A DNA stretch of 64,000 nucleotides from Bacilli bacterium (GTDB lineage Bacteria > Bacillota_I > Bacilli_A > ML615J-28 > CAG-698): the NCBI GenBank assembly GCA_050953065.1, contig JBMNLZ010000002.1, positions 480,001 to 544,000 on the forward strand. The letters run 5' to 3'. Of the stretch, positions 54,575-64,000 are shown piece after piece. Both the position numbers and the translations under genes were made by a program. A model generated the notes under the pieces. It searched no databases. It saw only the letters and a program-made list of their open reading frames with translations, and was not told the origin of the DNA. How positions within the stretch are numbered: the stretch's first letter is position 1; every line of letters begins with the position of its first letter.

Positions 54575-55833
54575 TATTTACTTTAAAAAATGCTAGAATT
54601 TATATGAATAATAAATTCTTACAAAAAGATATTTTGGTATCAGATGGTAGGATATCTGAAATTGATACAGATATTGAAGAAGGAAGAATAATAGATTGTA
54701 AGAATAAGTTAGTTGCACCTGCTTTTATTGACCCGCATGTTCATGGTAGACAACCAGGATATGAATATAAAGAAACTATTGCAACAGTTACTAAAGCTGC
54801 TGCAAAAGGTGGCTATACTAAAATCTTTTTGATGCCTAATTTAAAACCTGTTCCAAGCAATTTGGAAAATCTGAACTTGATTTTTAATATTATAAAAAAA
54901 GATGCTTTAATTGATTGTTATCAATTAGCATCAATTACTAAAAATCAATCAGGAAAAGATGGATTAAGTGATATTGAAAGGTTAGCTCCTTATGTTGTTG
55001 GATTTTCTGATGATGGGAAGGGCGTAGTTGATAGCGGAACAATGTATGAGGCAATGTTGAAAGCTAAGAAATATAATAGAGCAATTCTAGCTCATGCTGA
55101 AGATGAATCGCTTCTTTATGGTGGGGTAATTCATAAAGGGCAAATTAGTGAGGAACAAAACATACCAGGCATTCTTTCGGCTAGTGAAACTGTACAAGTA
55201 GCAAGAGATTTAGTGCTAGCAGAAGCAACAAAAGTTCATTATCATTTATGTCATGTATCAGCTAAAGAAACTCTTTCTTTAGTTAAATATTTTAAAGATA
55301 GAGGCGTTAATGTAACGGTTGAGGCTACACCTCATCATATTTTGTTAAATGAAACAGATTTAAAAGATGATGGAATTTATAAGGTTAATCCACCGCTTCG
55401 TAGTAAAGAAGATCAAGAAGCAATTATTAAGGCTCTTCAAAATGGTGTGATTGATATGATTGCAACAGATCATGCTCCACATAGTGAAGAAGAAAAAAAT
55501 AAAGGGTTATTAAACTCTTCCTTTGGTATGGTTGGAATTGAAACTTCTTTTGGATTATTGTATACTTATTTGGTTAAACAAAAGAAGATAAGTTTAGAAA
55601 AACTTTTAGATATGATGAGTCTAAATGTAAGCAAAGCATTTGGAATTGAGAGTAATCAAATAAAAGTTGGAAATAGTGCTAATTTAGTCGTTATTGATTT
55701 AGAGAAAGAGTTTATTATAGATAAGAATAAATTTGTAAGTAAAGGGAAAAACACTCCTTTTAATGGATATAAATGTTTTGGACAAATTATAATGACGGTT
55801 TCAAAAGGGGAAATAGTATATGAATTACAGTAA
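54571..55833 (+). CDS. pyrC: Dihydroorotase (type I)
   Basis: 'DPHVH.R.PG', 'MPN..P', 'TPHH', 'KVNPPLR', 'ATDHAPH'. Confidence 0.96.
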   Translation: MIFTLKNARIYMNNKFLQKDILVSDGRISEIDTDIEEGRIIDCKNKLVAPAFIDPHVHGRQPGYEYKETIATVTKAAAKGGYTKIFLMPNLKPVPSNLENLNLIFNIIKKDALIDCYQLASITKNQSGKDGLSDIERLAPYVVGFSDDGKGVVDSGTMYEAMLKAKKYNRAILAHAEDESLLYGGVIHKGQISEEQNIPGILSASETVQVARDLVLAEATKVHYHLCHVSAKETLSLVKYFKDRGVNVTVEATPHHILLNETDLKDDGIYKVNPPLRSKEDQEAIIKALQNGVIDMIATDHAPHSEEEKNKGLLNSSFGMVGIETSFGLLYTYLVKQKKISLEKLLDMMSLNVSKAFGIESNQIKVGNSANLVVIDLEKEFIIDKNKFVSKGKNTPFNGYKCFGQIIMTVSKGEIVYELQ

Positions 55834-56896: not shown

Positions 56897-59800
56897 ATGC
56901 CAAAAAGAACAGATATAAAGAAAATCTTAGTTATAGGATCTGGACCAATTGTAATTGGTCAAGCGGCTGAATTTGACTATGCAGGAACCCAAGCTTGTCT
57001 TGCTTTAAAAGAAGAAGGATATAAAGTAGTTTTGATAAACTCAAATCCAGCTACAATTATGACAGATACAATCATTGCAGATAAAGTATATATGGAACCA
57101 CTTAATTTAGAGTTTGTATCTAGAATTATCAGAATGGAACGCCCTGATGCATTATTACCAACTTTAGGCGGTCAAACTGCTTTAAATTTAGCTGTTCAGT
57201 TATATGAAAAAGGAATTTTAGCTGAATGTAGAGTAGAAGTAATTGGAACTTCAATTGATTCTATTGAGCATGGAGAAGATAGAGATTTATTCAAAAAACT
57301 ATGTGAAAGAATTTCACAACCTGTTTTGGAAAGTTTTATTGCAACAAACAAAAAAGAAGCTATTCAATATGCTAATCAAATAGGTTATCCTATTATTGTT
57401 AGACCTGGATATACTTTAGGAGGAACTGGTGGAGGCTTTGCAGATAACGATGCTCAATTATTATATTTAGTTGATAATGCTTTAAGTTTATCTTCAAATA
57501 ATACTGTTTTGATTGAAAAATCAATTAAGGGTTATAAAGAAATAGAATTTGAATGTATGAGAGATCATAAGGGGACAACTATTACTATTTGTTGTATGGA
57601 AAATATTGATCCAGTAGGTGTACATACTGGAGATTCAATGGTAGTTTGTCCGAGTCAAACTCTTGCAAGCAAAGAATATAATATGTTAAAACAAGCAAGC
57701 ATAAAAATTATTCAAGCTTTAGACATTATAGGTGGTTGTAATATTCAGTTTGCACTAGACCCTAATAGTTTTGATTATTATGTGATTGAGGTTAATCCTC
57801 GAGTTTCAAGATCATCAGCTCTTGCTAGTAAAGCAAGTGGTTATCCAATTGCTAGAGTAAGTTCAAAAATTGCAGTTGGTTTAAATTTAGATGAAATCGA
57901 TCTTTCATGTACAAAAGCATGCTTTGAACCTTCTTTAGATTACATTGTTGTAAAATTGCCAAGATTTCCATTTGATAAGTTTGTAAAAGCTAACAGAAAT
58001 TTATCTACTCAAATGAAAGCAACTGGCGAGGTTATGAGTGTTGGTAGAACATTTGAAGAAGCTTTTTTAAAGGGGATTAGATCTTTAGAGATTGGTGTTA
58101 ATCATATTTATCTTAAAAAGATGGCTGATAAATCAACTGAAGATTTACTTAAAAAAATAGAAAAACCTACTGATGAGGGGATTTTTGTTATTGCTGAGTT
58201 GTTAAGAAGAGATATTTCTGTTAGACAAATAAATTCTGTTACTAAAATAGATGCATATTTTTTAGATAAAATTAAATTAATAATTGATTTTGAAAAAGTA
58301 TTTAAAGCAGATCCTAGTTTAGATAATATTAAAAAGGCTAAACGTATGGGCTTTTCTGATGCATATCTAGCAGAAGTTATGGGAATGGATGAAATTGAAT
58401 TTTTCTTATTAAGAAAAGAAAATAATATTTTTCCAGTTTACCATATGATAGACACTTGCGCAGGTGAGTTTGATAGTTATGTGCCTTATTTATATTCAAC
58501 ATATGAATCATTTAATGAATCAATTGTGACTGAAAAAGAAAAAGTAATAGTTCTAGGGTCTGGTCCTATTAGAATAGGTCAAGGAGTTGAGTTTGACTAT
58601 TCAACAGTGCATGCCATTTGGGGTATTAAAGAAATGGGGTATGAGGCTATTGTAATTAATAATAACCCTGAAACTGTTTCAACGGATTATTTAATTTCTG
58701 ATAAATTATATTTTGAAGCTCTAACAATTGAAGATGTAATGAATATTATTACATTAGAAAAACCAAAAGGAGTGATTGTAGAACTTGGTGGTCAAACTGC
58801 TATTAATTTAGCAGAAAGACTTGATAGATTAAATATTCCAATTATTGGTAGTGATCCTAAAGCAATTGAAAGAGCAGAAAATAGAAAAAGCTTTGAAGCT
58901 TTAGTAAGAGAATTAAAAATTCCTCAACCAAAAGGGAAAACTGTTAATAATATGGCTGATGGAATAAAGACAGCAGAAGAGATAGGTTATCCTGTTTTAG
59001 TTCGTCCATCTTATGTTTTAGGTGGAAGAGCTATGCAAATTGTTTATGAAAATGAAGGATTAGTTAGATATTTAAACGAAGCCTTCTTAGTAGACAGCAA
59101 ACAACCTGTTTTAATTGATAAATATGTAAGTGGAAAAGAAGCTGAAGTAGATGCAGTATGTGATGGGGTTGATGTTTTTATTCCTGGTATAATGGAACAT
59201 ATTGAAAGAACAGGAGTTCATTCAGGAGATTCAATTAGTGTGTATCCACCAGTATCTTTAAGTGATAAAGTAAAAGAAAAGATTTGTGAGTATACAATAA
59301 AATTAGGCCTTGAAATAGGGATTGTTGGTTTGTTTAATATCCAGTTTATTGTTGAAAAGAATGATCAAGTATCTGTAATTGAGGTAAATCCTCGTTCAAG
59401 TAGAACAGTACCTTTTATTTCCAAAGCAACAAAAGTTAATCTTGCCAACATTGCAACAAAAGTTATGCTTGGTAAAAGTTTGAAAGAACAAGGCTTTACA
59501 ACTTGTTTGCTTGAAAAAGAATCAATTTATTATGTAAAAGCTCCGACATTTTCTTATTCTAAAATTGGTGGGTTAGATGCTGTTTTAAGTCCTGAAATGA
59601 AATCAACAGGAGAAGCAATAGGATATGATTCTTCTTTAAATAGGGCATTATATAAAGCATTAAAAGCAAGTAATCAAAAAGTTATTAATTATGGAACAGT
59701 TTTTGTAACGGTATCTGATAAAACAAAAGAAGAAGCATTGCCACTGGTTAGAAGATTTTATGAATTAGGTTTTAATATTGTAGCAACAAGAGGAACGGGT

Positions 59801-60067
59801 ATGTTTTTAAAAGAACATGGTATTAAAACTAGAGTTATGAAAAAAATTAGTGAGAATTCTGAAGAAATATTAGAAGAAATTAGAAAAGGATATATTTCTT
59901 ATATTATAAATACAGTAAGCAGTTATGATGACAGTGGTACTAGGGATGGGGCTATTATTAGAAAAGTTGCAGTTGAAAATAATATTACACCATTTACATC
60001 TCTTGATACTGTAAGAGTTTTATTAGATGTCCTTGATGAAATTACTATGAAGGTGAGAACAATTTAG
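56897..60067 (+). CDS. carB: Carbamoyl-phosphate synthase large subunit
   Basis: 'MPKRTDIKKILVIGSGPIVIGQAAEFDY', 'GVHTGDS', 'EVNPRVSRSS', duplicated ATP-grasp domains, MGS-like tail. Confidence 0.98.
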   Translation: MPKRTDIKKILVIGSGPIVIGQAAEFDYAGTQACLALKEEGYKVVLINSNPATIMTDTIIADKVYMEPLNLEFVSRIIRMERPDALLPTLGGQTALNLAVQLYEKGILAECRVEVIGTSIDSIEHGEDRDLFKKLCERISQPVLESFIATNKKEAIQYANQIGYPIIVRPGYTLGGTGGGFADNDAQLLYLVDNALSLSSNNTVLIEKSIKGYKEIEFECMRDHKGTTITICCMENIDPVGVHTGDSMVVCPSQTLASKEYNMLKQASIKIIQALDIIGGCNIQFALDPNSFDYYVIEVNPRVSRSSALASKASGYPIARVSSKIAVGLNLDEIDLSCTKACFEPSLDYIVVKLPRFPFDKFVKANRNLSTQMKATGEVMSVGRTFEEAFLKGIRSLEIGVNHIYLKKMADKSTEDLLKKIEKPTDEGIFVIAELLRRDISVRQINSVTKIDAYFLDKIKLIIDFEKVFKADPSLDNIKKAKRMGFSDAYLAEVMGMDEIEFFLLRKENNIFPVYHMIDTCAGEFDSYVPYLYSTYESFNESIVTEKEKVIVLGSGPIRIGQGVEFDYSTVHAIWGIKEMGYEAIVINNNPETVSTDYLISDKLYFEALTIEDVMNIITLEKPKGVIVELGGQTAINLAERLDRLNIPIIGSDPKAIERAENRKSFEALVRELKIPQPKGKTVNNMADGIKTAEEIGYPVLVRPSYVLGGRAMQIVYENEGLVRYLNEAFLVDSKQPVLIDKYVSGKEAEVDAVCDGVDVFIPGIMEHIERTGVHSGDSISVYPPVSLSDKVKEKICEYTIKLGLEIGIVGLFNIQFIVEKNDQVSVIEVNPRSSRTVPFISKATKVNLANIATKVMLGKSLKEQGFTTCLLEKESIYYVKAPTFSYSKIGGLDAVLSPEMKSTGEAIGYDSSLNRALYKALKASNQKVINYGTVFVTVSDKTKEEALPLVRRFYELGFNIVATRGTGMFLKEHGIKTRVMKKISENSEEILEEIRKGYISYIINTVSSYDDSGTRDGAIIRKVAVENNITPFTSLDTVRVLLDVLDEITMKVRTI

Positions 60068-61715
<1,648 letters not shown>

Positions 61716-61716
61716 T

Positions 61717-62400
61717 ATGGTAATTATTGCATTAGATTTTGAAAATAGAGAAAAAACTTTTGAGTTTTTAAAGAAGTTTAATGAACAGTTATATGTAAAG
61801 GTTGGGATGGAATTGTTTTATGCAGAAGGTCCATCTATTATAAAAGATATAAAAGCCTTAGGTCATAAGATTTTTCTTGATTTAAAATGTCATGATATTC
61901 CTAATACTGTAAAAAAAGCAATGGGAAGTCTTGCAAAACTAGATGTTGATATAATTAACATTCATGCAGCTGGTGGAATTAAAATGATGAGCGAAGCTTT
62001 AGATGGTTTAAGAGAAAATGGTTCAAAAGCCTTATTAATTGGAGTTACTCAATTAACTTCAACTGATAAAGAAACAATGAATAATGAAATTATGATTCCA
62101 GGTGAAGTAATTGAAGCAGTTAAGAAGTATGCTTTAAATGCAAAAAAAGCTGGTTTAAATGGTGTGGTTTGTTCACCTTTAGAAGTAGAAGCAATTAAAG
62201 AGGTTTGCGGGAAAAGTTTTATTACTGTAACTCCGGGAATTAGACCAAAAGAAGCATCTATTGATGATCAAAAAAGAATCACAACTCCAAAAGATGCAAA
62301 AAGAATTGGATGTGATTTTATAGTTGTAGGACGTCCAATAACTAAAGCTGATAATCCAGTTGAAGCATATAGAAAAATAAGAGAGGATTTTACAAACTAA
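61717..62400 (+). CDS. pyrF: Orotidine-5'-phosphate decarboxylase
   Basis: 'IIALD', 'KVG.ELF', '[10 protein letters not shown]', 'TPGIR', 'VVGRPIT'; ATG 61717 after AAGGAG. Confidence 0.97.
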
Positions 62401-63026
62401 TGAAAGAAGTAGCAAAAGCCTTATTAGAAATAAAAGCTGTATTTTTATCACCAGATAAACCATTTACTTGGGCAAGTGGAATTAAATCACCGATTTATTG
62501 TGATAATAGATTAATATTATCATACCCAAAAGTGAGAAAAATGATTGAAAATAAATTTGCTATGATGGTAAAAAATGAATTTCCGGATTGTGAGTTATTA
62601 ATGGGAACTGCAACTGCTGGAATTCCTCATGCAGCATACATTAGTGAAATCTTAAATTTGCCGATGGGCTATGTTAGAAGTAGTAGTAAAGATCATGGAA
62701 GAAATAATCAAATTGAAGGGAAGTATGAAAAAGGCCAAAAGGTTGTAGTTATTGAAGACTTAATTTCAACTGGAAAATCTTCAATTGAAGTTGTTAATTC
62801 ATTAATTGAAGCAGGAGTAGAAGTTTTAGGAATCGCATCAATTTTTACTTATGAATTAGAAAAAGCAAAACAAAACTTTGAAAGCATGAAGATAAAAACT
62901 ATCTCACTTACTAACTATTCAACTTTAATTGAAGTTGCCATTGAAGAAAAATATATTGCTAGTGATTCAATGGATAAATTAATTAAGTGGAAAAAAGATC
63001 CAAGCGATGAAAGTTGGATGCTTTAA
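62400..63026 (+). CDS. pyrE: Orotate phosphoribosyltransferase
   Basis: 'FTWASGIKSPIYCDNR', 'VIEDLISTG.S'. Confidence 0.97.
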   Translation: MKEVAKALLEIKAVFLSPDKPFTWASGIKSPIYCDNRLILSYPKVRKMIENKFAMMVKNEFPDCELLMGTATAGIPHAAYISEILNLPMGYVRSSSKDHGRNNQIEGKYEKGQKVVVIEDLISTGKSSIEVVNSLIEAGVEVLGIASIFTYELEKAKQNFESMKIKTISLTNYSTLIEVAIEEKYIASDSMDKLIKWKKDPSDESWML

Positions 63027-63039
63027 TACATAAATTGTC

Positions 63040-63069
63040 TTGACAAAACACTTAAAAGTGTAGTATAAT
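63040..63069 (+). promoter_or_regulatory. Sigma-A promoter of the T-box leader
   Basis: TTGACA-18 nt-TATAAT. Confidence 0.75.
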
Positions 63070-63091
63070 CTTTTATAGATTGATTAATATA

Positions 63092-63301
63092 GGCGTAGAA
63101 GAAATCGGAGTAGTTTTTAATAACTTACTAATAGAGAGTGTTTGGTTGGTGGAAAAACATGGAGTTTTAAAGACGAATTACAATTTTGGAGCTTATCGTA
63201 TGCTTTGCGTTAAAAAGTATAAAGAGCATCTGTTAAAGATGAAGTAAAGGTGGTACCGCGGAAAAGTTTTCGTCCTTGAATTAATTCAAGGACCTTTTTT
63301 T
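63092..63301 (+). promoter_or_regulatory. T-box riboswitch, Tyr (UAC) specifier
   Basis: GA motif GCGTAGA...GGAGC, AGTA loop-E, AGAGAG and GGTGGAA distal motifs, specifier loop GAA-T-TAC-A (63175-63182), T-box AAGG-TGGTACC-GCG (bulge 63251-63257), antiterminator partner CGT-CCTT. Confidence 0.93.
63272..63301 (+). terminator. T-box terminator
   Basis: GTCCTTGAA ttaa TTCAAGGAC plus T7; overlaps the antiterminator 3' strand. Confidence 0.9.
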
Positions 63302-63333
63302 ATAAAAATAAATTAATAGGAGAAGTAAAAAAA

Positions 63334-64000
63334 ATGAAAATTAAAATGTTTAACGGTGAAAATTTACCTTTAGAAATGCATAAGGTAAAAATTGTTCAAA
63401 AATTAAATTTAATCCCAATCGATCAAAGAAAAAAGGCAATTGAAGAAGCAGGCTTTAACACATTCTTACTTAAAAATAGAGATGTATTTTTAGACATGCT
63501 TACAGATAGTGGTGTTAATGCAATGAGCGATAATCAATTAGCAGCTATGATGGTAGCAGATGATGCTTATGCAGGGAGTGAAACATATTATAGATTTGAA
63601 GAAAAATTAAGAGAAATTATAACTTTGCCTTATATTTTACCAGCTCATCAAGGAAGAGCTTGTGAGAATATTATTAGTCATGCATATGTAAAAAAAGGTG
63701 ATATTGTACCGATGAACTTTCATTTTACTACTACAAAATCTCATATTACTCTTAATGGTGGAACAGTTATTGAGTTATTAATTGATGAAGGATTAAATGT
63801 GAATAGTAATTATCCTTTTAAAGGGAATATGGATTTAGTAAAATTAGAAAACTTCTTTAAAACAAATGGAACTGAAAATGTACCGTTTGTAAGAATAGAA
63901 GCTGGAACGAACCTAATTGGTGGTCAACCAATTTCACTAGAAAACTTCAAAGCAACTACTGCTTTATGTAAAAAATATAAAGTTAGAACAGTATTAGATG
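63334..64000 (+). CDS. PLP-dependent beta-eliminating lyase of the tyrosine phenol-lyase/tryptophanase family, 3'-truncated by the window (absent from the ORF track)
   Basis: AGGAG RBS; 'EAGFNTFLL....FLDMLTDSGVNAMSD', 'DAYAGS', 'HQGRACE', 'NFHFTTT', 'FKGNMD', 'NLIGGQP.S'. Confidence 0.92.
   Translation, partial: MKIKMFNGENLPLEMHKVKIVQKLNLIPIDQRKKAIEEAGFNTFLLKNRDVFLDMLTDSGVNAMSDNQLAAMMVADDAYAGSETYYRFEEKLREIITLPYILPAHQGRACENIISHAYVKKGDIVPMNFHFTTTKSHITLNGGTVIELLIDEGLNVNSNYPFKGNMDLVKLENFFKTNGTENVPFVRIEAGTNLIGGQPISLENFKATTALCKKYKVRTVLD

Follow-up and report, generated by a model that had tools for sequence, protein, structure and literature searches.

The 64,000-nucleotide stretch of DNA analysed here (the window, G000:C2:480001-544000, G000 being the source genome) ends in a T-box leader that reads a tyrosine codon and in the first part of the gene that it controls, which encodes an enzyme related to tyrosine phenol-lyase (TPL). 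The enzyme belongs to a clade, here called B3, that is predicted to be distinct from both canonical TPL and tryptophanase. T-boxes switch genes on when their cognate tRNA is uncharged. From the combination of switch and enzyme we consider it probable that the B3 enzyme raises the tyrosine supply of the cell, and on balance we favour the view that it would do so by joining phenol to a three-carbon unit. The positions of the elements are collected in Table 1.

A complete T-box precedes the lyase gene

Using cmscan (Infernal) with the Rfam model RF00230, we found a single T-box match between positions 55000 and 64000 of the window, with a score of 105.6 bits (gathering score 93, E = 3.9e-23) and an alignment over the whole model (1-219). 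The leader combines this score with a specifier codon followed by a purine beside the closing helix, a UGGNACC bulge and a competing terminator, the 5' arm of which shares nucleotides with the 3' strand of the antiterminator. The predicted folding energies are -20.1 kcal/mol with the terminator and -10.1 kcal/mol for the antiterminator stretch alone. The promoter-like site upstream is the sole perfect one among 11 such sites in the scanned 2.2 kb (L003 400-2600); it ends 17 nucleotides upstream of the T-box match, and the arrangement is kept in the closest relative, L086. An earlier note on this DNA had claimed a complete T-box, which the full-length match bears out, and the positions that it gave for the UAC codon, the bulge and a threonine codon of the lyase gene (63727-63729) are exact. 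It had also taken the match between the variable U of the bulge and the discriminator base A73 of tRNA-Tyr as a sign of tyrosine specificity. The match is real, as tRNA-Tyr(GUA) (G000:C3:445896-445980) carries A73, but it is not diagnostic, since tRNA-Thr(UGU) likewise carries A73 and the variable base is U in 8 of the 10 T-boxes of G000.

Table 1. Positions of the T-box leader, its signals and the lyase gene in the window (position 1 is the first nucleotide of the window).
Feature	Position	Strand	Basis
Promoter-like site: TTGACA (63040-63045), 18-nucleotide spacer, TATAAT (63064-63069)	63040-63069	+	12/12 consensus, sigma-70-like
T-box leader: Stem I with specifier loop, reduced Stem II region, Stem III, antiterminator	63087-63280	+	RF00230
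Predicted specifier codon UAC (Tyr), followed by purine A63182	63179-63181	+	Comparison with related leaders
Bulge UGGUACC, pairing with the tRNA 3' end; variable U63254 faces discriminator A73	63251-63257	+	Sequence and RF00230
Intrinsic terminator: 9-bp stem (63272-63293) and T run	63272-63302	+	Sole terminator-like site in the scanned 2.2 kb
Ribosome-binding site AGGAGAAG, 8 nucleotides upstream of ATG	63318-63325	+	Read from the sequence
B3 TPL-like beta-eliminating lyase gene, 5' part (222 of 481 codons)	63334-64000	+	Profile matches

The specifier codon is read as tyrosine and the lyase gene stands alone

The codon cannot be called unambiguously from the sequence of the window alone, as the 3' strand of the specifier loop reads GAAUUACAAUUUUG, in which UAC-A (Tyr) and ACA-A (Thr) both place a purine after the codon. 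If the T-box were specific for threonine (ACA), or served both amino acids, its target would be the operon thrC-thrB-ACT-domain gene-hom-asd and the lyase gene would be a passenger. Several features fit such a reading: ACA-A suits the loop if the closing helix has 4 bp, the thrS leader of G000 reads UAAUUACUA, that is ACU-A, behind an identical UU spacer, the sole tRNA-Thr found has the anticodon UGU, matching ACA, and the five thr genes lie 3' of the lyase gene on the same strand, with no second T-box detected by cmscan ahead of thrC. The thrS leader itself (L013, G000:C2:360103-360311) uses ACU; since only 31 tRNA genes were found in the assembly, a tRNA-Thr(GGU) may be unassembled.

The codon column of cmscan proved unreliable, being shifted by one position at the leaders of the arginine operon and of pheS in G000, and the codon was therefore called by helix geometry and comparison, as the triplet just before the purine beside the closing helix. 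This rule was calibrated on the nine other T-boxes of G000, which precede valS, argG, alaS, the gene for O-acetylhomoserine sulfhydrylase, serS, trpB, asnS, pheS and thrS. In all 11 related leaders UAC-A directly abuts a helix strand CUUU or CUUC, so that ACA in the threonine register would there precede a paired C. The window has an extra A63183, which pairs with an inserted U63105 and extends the closing helix, and its minimum-free-energy fold pairs GAAAU with AUUUU. Furthermore, two near relatives from the metagenome scan, L086 and L103, with lyases 88% and 86% identical to that of the window, have leaders of 106.4 bits that read UAU-A at the position of the UAC. The gene order of L086 is that of the window (pyrD-pyrF-pyrE, leader, lyase gene, thrC, thrB), and the change from UAC to UAU is synonymous for tyrosine, whereas the threonine register would give AUA (Ile). 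Because of the UAC-A placement in 11 of 11 leaders and the UAU of the two nearest relatives, the comparison settles the predicted specifier as tyrosine. The UAC originally proposed is thus borne out, although the comparison with relatives was required.

Past the end of the window, the stop codon of the lyase gene is followed by a 13-bp hairpin (-11.3 kcal/mol), the stems of which are kept in L086 with a different loop, and thrC is preceded by a promoter-like element (TTGTAT-17-TATAAT) that is identical in the two genomes; these elements separate the lyase gene from thrC. The linkage to thrC is confined to the genus of G000. Elsewhere the neighbours differ between genera, with asd upstream of the leader in one and an unrelated 398-residue protein encoded downstream in another. 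No tyrS or transporter gene lies downstream of the lyase gene, and tyrS of G000 (G000:C2:221533-222786) has no T-box, so the lyase gene is the only gene of G000 under a tyrosine T-box. It is the sole gene under the switch and forms a monocistronic unit, and the direct pairing of T-box and lyase gene that had been read from the window holds beyond position 64000 with no tyrS or transporter gene to account for it. In view of the related leaders, the UAU variant, the hairpin and the promoter-like element, a threonine or dual specifier acting on the thr operon is virtually ruled out.

The enzyme falls in a third clade of the TPL and tryptophanase family

The full lyase gene (G000:C2:543334-544779) encodes 481 amino acids and ends at a position equivalent to 64779 of the window. 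Its 222-residue part inside the window matches PF01212 with 123.8 bits, and the enzyme matches NF009709, the 'tryptophanase' subfamily model of NCBIfam, with 585.7 bits against 285. It stays well below the cut-offs of the equivalog models, with 435.9 of 720.7 bits for TPL (TIGR02618) and 351 of 825.8 and 397.8 of 750 bits for the two TnaA models (TIGR02617 and NF053783); other B3 orthologues score 448-464 bits on TIGR02618. The best match in the PDB is the TPL of Citrobacter freundii (2ez1, 376.8 bits over residues 10-459), and tryptophanases come next with 280-319 bits.

Residues were compared in TPL numbering across 23 B3 sequences (from Bacillota, Bacteroidota, Oxalobacter and an archaeal genome bin) and eight tryptophanase-type paralogues. 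Thr124, Met379, Arg381, Phe448 and Phe449, all of the TPL type, occur in 23 of 23 B3 sequences, and the eight paralogues have Asp, Val or Cys, Ile or Val, His and Phe at these positions. Tyr71, Lys257, Arg404, Asn185 and Asp214 are likewise kept in all 23. We take Lys257 to be the Schiff-base lysine and Tyr71 the general acid, and Arg381 and Thr124 presumably bind the phenol hydroxyl. Two positions set B3 apart: Leu217 and Arg256 (Leu225 and Arg264 in the numbering of the window enzyme) are present in 23 of 23 B3 sequences, against Arg and Lys in C. freundii TPL, in three TPL-type representatives and in 8 of 8 paralogues. Position 256 adjoins the Schiff-base lysine, and position 217 lies three residues past the Asp that binds the pyridine nitrogen; by analogy with fold-type I enzymes we assume that residue 217 faces, or hydrogen-bonds, O3' of the cofactor. 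A comparison of 70 full-length members of the wider family showed Leu or Met at position 217, combined with Arg256 and the TPL pocket, in B3 rows only. No paper found in the literature searched mentions Arg217, and the available part of PMC10170061 names Lys257 with no mention of Arg217 or Lys256.

A FastTree phylogeny of 87 rows, built after removal of 14 fragmentary or chimeric rows and with a weak backbone, places 25 B3 rows on one branch with 100% Shimodaira-Hasegawa-like support, and the three canonical TPL-type representatives fall outside it. By these comparisons the enzyme is predicted to be neither a canonical TPL nor a tryptophanase, and to belong to a well-supported third clade. The TPL-type residues reported in the earlier note are confirmed: the codon at 63727-63729 encodes Thr132, which aligns with Thr124 of C. 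freundii TPL, and equivalents of Phe36, Met379, Arg381, Phe448 and Phe449 are present, partly beyond the window, including Phe where tryptophanases carry His. As a TPL in the strict sense the enzyme nevertheless fails, on account of the score, the separate clade and the two invariant changes at the cofactor site.

B3 is a large clade of strongly conserved sequences: the best 120 of more than 7,999 database matches are 65-99% identical to the window enzyme and mostly 482 amino acids long. B3 occurs in Clostridia, Bacteroidales, Oxalobacter and a Methanosarcinales genome bin, and its cultured carriers include Sporanaerobacter acetigenes, Miniphocaeibacter massiliensis and Oxalobacter formigenes. 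Public records label B3 proteins 'tryptophanase' or 'tyrosine phenol-lyase', the former because the NF009709 model covers B3. Thousands of B3 proteins carry these names, and counts of indole or phenol producers in metagenomes may therefore include a clade of different, possibly opposite, role. The nearest outgroup of B3, P0148, has the tryptophanase-type Asp at TPL position 124 together with the B3-type Leu217 and Arg256, and may be an indole-handling counterpart of B3. A further group of proteins (P0122-P0125, P0129, P0131-P0133 and others), 32-37% identical to the query, is about 850-930 amino acids long, and each of them has two tryptophanase/TPL-like stretches, as if family members had been duplicated in tandem or fused.

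The pairing of T-box and B3 gene recurs among relatives

Related loci were surveyed in a family sample of 57 genomes and an order sample of 106 genomes, 27 of which have a B3 gene; many of the order genomes are incomplete bins (60-97% complete). T-boxes were called with cmscan at the RF00230 gathering score, and a laxer threshold (E <= 0.001) was applied to loci that appeared to have none; all counts rest on cmscan, as a regular-expression scan for the bulge missed L041. An orthologue of the lyase is present in 14 of the 57 family genomes, thirteen of them 62-68% identical and one, in a genome of the same genus, only a fragment (89%). At the gathering score 11 of 12 orthologous family loci with upstream sequence have a T-box, in contrast to none of eight loci of a tryptophanase-type paralogue (34-40% identical). 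Counted over all searches, T-boxes precede 12 of 13 assessable loci in the own family, two of 14 in the sister family (below gathering, with 80.9 and 69.7 bits), two of the 15 loci scanned out of 33 in wider reference genomes (Oscillospiraceae and Peptoniphilaceae genome bins) and three of the 19 scanned out of 25 metagenome loci. All 19 leaders read have tyrosine codons (UAC in 17, UAU in two); in two of them (L072 and L101) the codon is followed by C and not by a purine. The pairing of T-box and B3 gene is thus recurrent, not universal. The 12 sister-family loci with no T-box, and L024 of the own family, have short AT-rich upstream regions with promoter-like sites.

Two of the loci show further peculiarities. 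In L101 (1993-2520; B3 lyase 57% identical) a tyrosine T-box with its terminator occupies 1993-2276 and the stretch just beyond, the lyase starts at 2501, and between terminator and lyase lies a 73-nucleotide tRNA-like element (L101:2311-2383) that scores 54.1 bits on the Rfam tRNA model. It has a cloverleaf fold with z = -4.1, an anticodon loop CCGUAAA (GUA, Tyr), a short variable arm and C33; ARAGORN called no tRNA there. In L025 (G028:C152) the T-box is kept and the B3 orthologue has one in-frame TAG, which is either a sequencing error or the mark of a recent pseudogene.

B3 genes with a T-box tend to lie in genomes that lack tyrA

Presence of tyrA was scored by PF02153 in the 27 B3-bearing genomes of the order. 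Prephenate dehydrogenase is encoded in one of the 14 genomes in which B3 has a T-box (G000 itself) and is missing from the other 13, whereas of the 13 genomes in which B3 has no T-box ten have tyrA and three do not. The association of T-box with tyrA absence gives a Fisher p of 3.4e-4 by genome and of 0.04 among genomes at least 90% complete (contingency table [[1,6],[6,2]]). Within the order, the link between T-box control of B3 and absence of tyrA is suggestive. A swap of regulons, in which tyrA would stand behind a tyrosine T-box wherever B3 has none, was considered and rejected, as neither tyrA nor the lyase gene has a T-box nearby in 5 of 5 tyrA-bearing carriers.

The earlier note had raised the idea that the genome lacks tyrA and aro genes, and this is refuted for G000. 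It has aroC (chorismate synthase, 378.9 bits), a prephenate dehydratase gene (pheA) and genes for 3-deoxy-D-arabino-heptulosonate 7-phosphate (DAHP) synthase and prephenate dehydrogenase (tyrA), which lie at G000:C2:566833-568694 (L071 334-2195) and overlap by 4 nucleotides. The enzyme would therefore be a supplement in G000, not a replacement. The DAHP synthase/tyrA pair starts 53 nucleotides past the last gene of the arginine operon, which lies behind a CGC (Arg) T-box (C2:558822-559030), and no separate leader was found for the pair.

For tryptophan, G000 offers a parallel to the arrangement in the window. A canonical trpB (TIGR00263, 539 bits; G000:C2:593007-594269, locus L009 C2:593007-594607) stands alone behind a UGG (Trp) T-box, and a search of the genome, which is 94% complete, gave neither trpA (PF00290) nor trpC (PF00218). 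The lone trpB looks like a means of tryptophan synthesis from scavenged indole.

Proposed role of the B3 enzyme

In the mechanism that we propose, the terminator would form and transcription would stop as long as tRNA-Tyr is mostly charged. When uncharged tRNA-Tyr accumulates, its anticodon would pair with the UAC and its free 3' end with the bulge, so that the antiterminator would be stabilised and the lyase gene transcribed. The enzyme would then add to the tyrosine supply through TPL chemistry that forms the carbon-carbon bond, either from phenol, pyruvate and ammonium or from phenol and serine by beta-replacement, a role parallel to that of the orphan TrpB behind its tryptophan T-box. A switch induced by starvation, together with an enzyme that keeps the residues handling the phenol ring, makes tyrosine supply from phenol the most economical explanation; what we infer from sequence is the direction in which the enzyme works, its use of phenol and the significance of its two substitutions. 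That B3 is a dedicated tyrosine synthase, a TPL scaffold biased to carbon-carbon bond formation with Leu217 and Arg256 as candidate adaptations, is a more tentative suggestion, which we hold possible but somewhat doubtful.

Canonical TPL is able to catalyse both proposed reactions: it runs the reverse and the beta-replacement reactions, the kcat of the reverse reaction being 1.5-fold that of elimination (PMC10170061). In the same source canonical tpl is activated by TyrR with L-tyrosine, which agrees with the initial argument that catabolic tpl is normally induced by tyrosine, the opposite of T-box logic (PMC10170061). A full-text literature search, which covered neither supplements nor a 2008 comparative T-box survey in the journal RNA, found no paper that links a T-box to TPL or tryptophanase.

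Several points weigh against a phenol-fed tyrosine supply. Phenol is toxic. UbiD-type decarboxylase was found in 0 of the 57 family genomes; an endogenous source, in which phenol would be made from chorismate via 4-hydroxybenzoate and such a decarboxylase, was rejected on this count, and phenol would therefore have to be exogenous. De novo tyrosine synthesis looks possible in G000 from its gene content, and the enzyme would be unneeded for prototrophy there. G000 is also the sole exception to the pattern of T-box and tyrA absence, and that pattern is suggestive and not proof because related genomes are not independent and many bins are incomplete; by genus the Fisher p is 0.10 ([[1,5],[6,2]]). 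Family genomes that have B3 do not lack tyrA more often than the others do: tyrA was found in 3 of 14 genomes with B3 and in 9 of 43 that have no B3. As for the switch, 13 of the 27 B3 loci of the order (12 in the sister family and L024) have no T-box even at E <= 0.001, and none was found at the scanned B3 genes of Bacteroidales, Oxalobacter and the archaeal genome bin. The wiring to starvation is therefore lineage-restricted, and the notion of a conserved switch holds in part: it is kept in many relatives, but about half of the B3 genes of the order and those of other phyla do without it. The surroundings of the gene suggest no pathway, since no neighbour is conserved across lineages; the neighbours are lineage-specific housekeeping genes (valS, a polyprenyl synthetase gene and a biotin ligase-like gene), with Liv-type ATP-binding cassette ATPases at one locus. 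We found no published assay of any B3 enzyme in the literature searched. Finally, the Km values of canonical TPL in the synthetic direction are high, with 1.1 mM for phenol, 12 mM for pyruvate and 20 mM for NH3 (PMC10170061).

Alternative functions of the enzyme

The alternative that survives best, although it is unlikely, is that B3 carries out another reaction dependent on pyridoxal phosphate (PLP) on a substrate with a p-hydroxyphenyl group, such as the transamination of 4-hydroxyphenylpyruvate or a conversion of D-tyrosine, with Leu217 and Arg256 altering the specificity. The starvation wiring says only that the product aids tyrosine supply, both invariant changes lie beside the cofactor, and canonical TPL racemises alanine as a side reaction (PMC10170061). 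However, 13 of the 14 T-box-bearing genomes have no prephenate dehydrogenase and would therefore lack the 4-hydroxyphenylpyruvate for transamination. Moreover, the invariance of Tyr71, Arg381, Thr124, Phe448 and Phe449 in 23 of 23 sequences concerns residues that we take to serve cleavage or formation of the bond to the phenol ring, and would be hard to explain in a transaminase or racemase.

An ordinary catabolic TPL, with the T-box incidental or serving, for instance, carbon and nitrogen scavenging in general amino-acid starvation, is quite improbable. It would accord with TPLs being the closest solved structures, with the TPL-like pocket and catalytic residues, with the half of B3 genes that have no T-box and with the apparent ability of G000 to make tyrosine de novo. 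Yet a tyrosine T-box would turn the gene on when tyrosine is scarce, that is when there is least substrate and when its destruction does most harm, which is the reverse of the tyrosine induction of canonical tpl described above. The pairing also recurs in several lineages, including one with a synonymous codon change, and goes with the absence of tyrA, while Leu217 and Arg256 separate B3 from every TPL- and tryptophanase-type sequence compared. The TPLs of phenol-producing gut strains share 70-99% identity with the C. freundii enzyme (PMC6424909); these are not B3, which aligns to C. freundii TPL far less closely (376.8 bits).

Just as improbable is a role in destroying tyrosine analogues, such as ring-substituted ones, that compete for tyrosyl-tRNA synthetase, with the T-box sensing the drop in charging. 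Canonical TPL accepts many ring-substituted phenols and tyrosines (PMC10170061), a charging defect caused by an analogue would turn on the T-box, and such a role would account for the gene in the tyrA-bearing G000. Against it, analogue destruction offers no reason for the link with tyrA absence, and the pocket residues are those of a tyrosine-specific TPL with no visible adaptation. We also know of no such role for the TPL and tryptophanase family.

Should the supply of tyrosine from phenol prove right, it would account for the source of tyrosine in small-genome anaerobes that have no tyrA, and would give tyrosine a salvage pathway parallel to indole salvage by TrpB. It would also reveal a biological sink for phenol, from which the uraemic toxin phenyl sulfate is formed. 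On the more tentative view of a dedicated synthase, B3 would be the only tyrosine-forming enzyme in the 13 T-box-bearing genomes that have no tyrA. Next to the routes through prephenate/arogenate dehydrogenase and through phenylalanine hydroxylase, nature would then have a third way to tyrosine that draws on phenol from the environment, and these anaerobes would consume phenol in guts and digesters and not produce it. Leu217 and Arg256 offer a concrete handle on how a reversible lyase might be biased to synthesis.

Comparison with known systems

Canonical TPL of C. freundii and Erwinia herbicola (TIGR02618; PDB 2ez1, 1tpl, 1c7g) shares with B3 the fold and the family PF01212. The C. freundii residues Phe36, Thr49, Tyr71, Arg100, Phe123, Thr124, Asn185, Asp214, Ser254, Lys257, Met379, Arg381, Arg404, Phe448 and Phe449 all have identical equivalents in the window enzyme. 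B3 differs in failing the equivalog score, in its separate clade and in the exchanges Arg217 to Leu and Lys256 to Arg, and the window enzyme has about 20 extra C-terminal residues (481 versus 456 amino acids). Regulation is opposite as well, canonical tpl responding to TyrR and tyrosine and the window gene, as predicted, to uncharged tRNA-Tyr. Tryptophanase TnaA (TIGR02617, NF053783; PDB 1ax4, 2oqx) belongs to the same family and falls under the same NF009709 subfamily model, but has Asp, Val or Cys, Ile or Val, and His where the window enzyme has Thr, Met, Arg and Phe; the tryptophanase-type paralogues of related genomes, unlike B3, have no T-box (0 of 8).

On the side of the leader, the nearest counterpart is that of Bacillus subtilis tyrS, which we take to be the founding member of RF00230, of the tyrosine class and with a UAC specifier. 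It shares with the window leader the model, the specifier and the terminator/antiterminator logic, whereas the window leader controls a gene of the lyase family and has a reduced Stem II region, seen as gaps in the alignment. The orphan TrpB of G000 is a PLP enzyme that joins an external aromatic ring to a three-carbon unit and, like B3, stands alone behind a T-box for the product amino acid; it differs in its fold (type II) and family, and its synthetic role is established for the TrpB family, while that of B3 is only deduced here. The present analysis adds the decision between Tyr and Thr at the specifier, the exchange of UAC for UAU in the nearest relatives, Leu217 and Arg256 as the signature of B3, the tyrA of G000 and the link between T-box and tyrA absence.

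Genome context and further observations

G000 has 1.55 Mb in 3 contigs, a G+C content of about 29.5% and a completeness of 93.9%. The part of the window before the leader (56897-63026) is filled by a pyrimidine biosynthesis operon, whose last gene, pyrE, ends at 63026; named from their translations, its genes are a carB-like gene of 1056 codons followed by pyrK-, pyrD-, pyrF- and pyrE-like genes.

In other phyla B3 genes lie near tRNA genes. On Oxalobacter-type contigs (L049, L052, L054, L057, L096-L098, L105, L107) a tRNA-Pro(CGG) gene is found about 100 nucleotides to 1.8 kb upstream of B3, and on Bacteroidales contigs (L038, L039, L087) valS precedes B3 and a tRNA-Val(UAC) gene follows it. 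These genes were discarded as a tyrosine link, being for tRNA-Pro and tRNA-Val and not tRNA-Tyr. The branching within B3 in the FastTree phylogeny disagrees with taxonomy, and this, together with the adjacency to tRNA genes, hints at horizontal transfer of B3.

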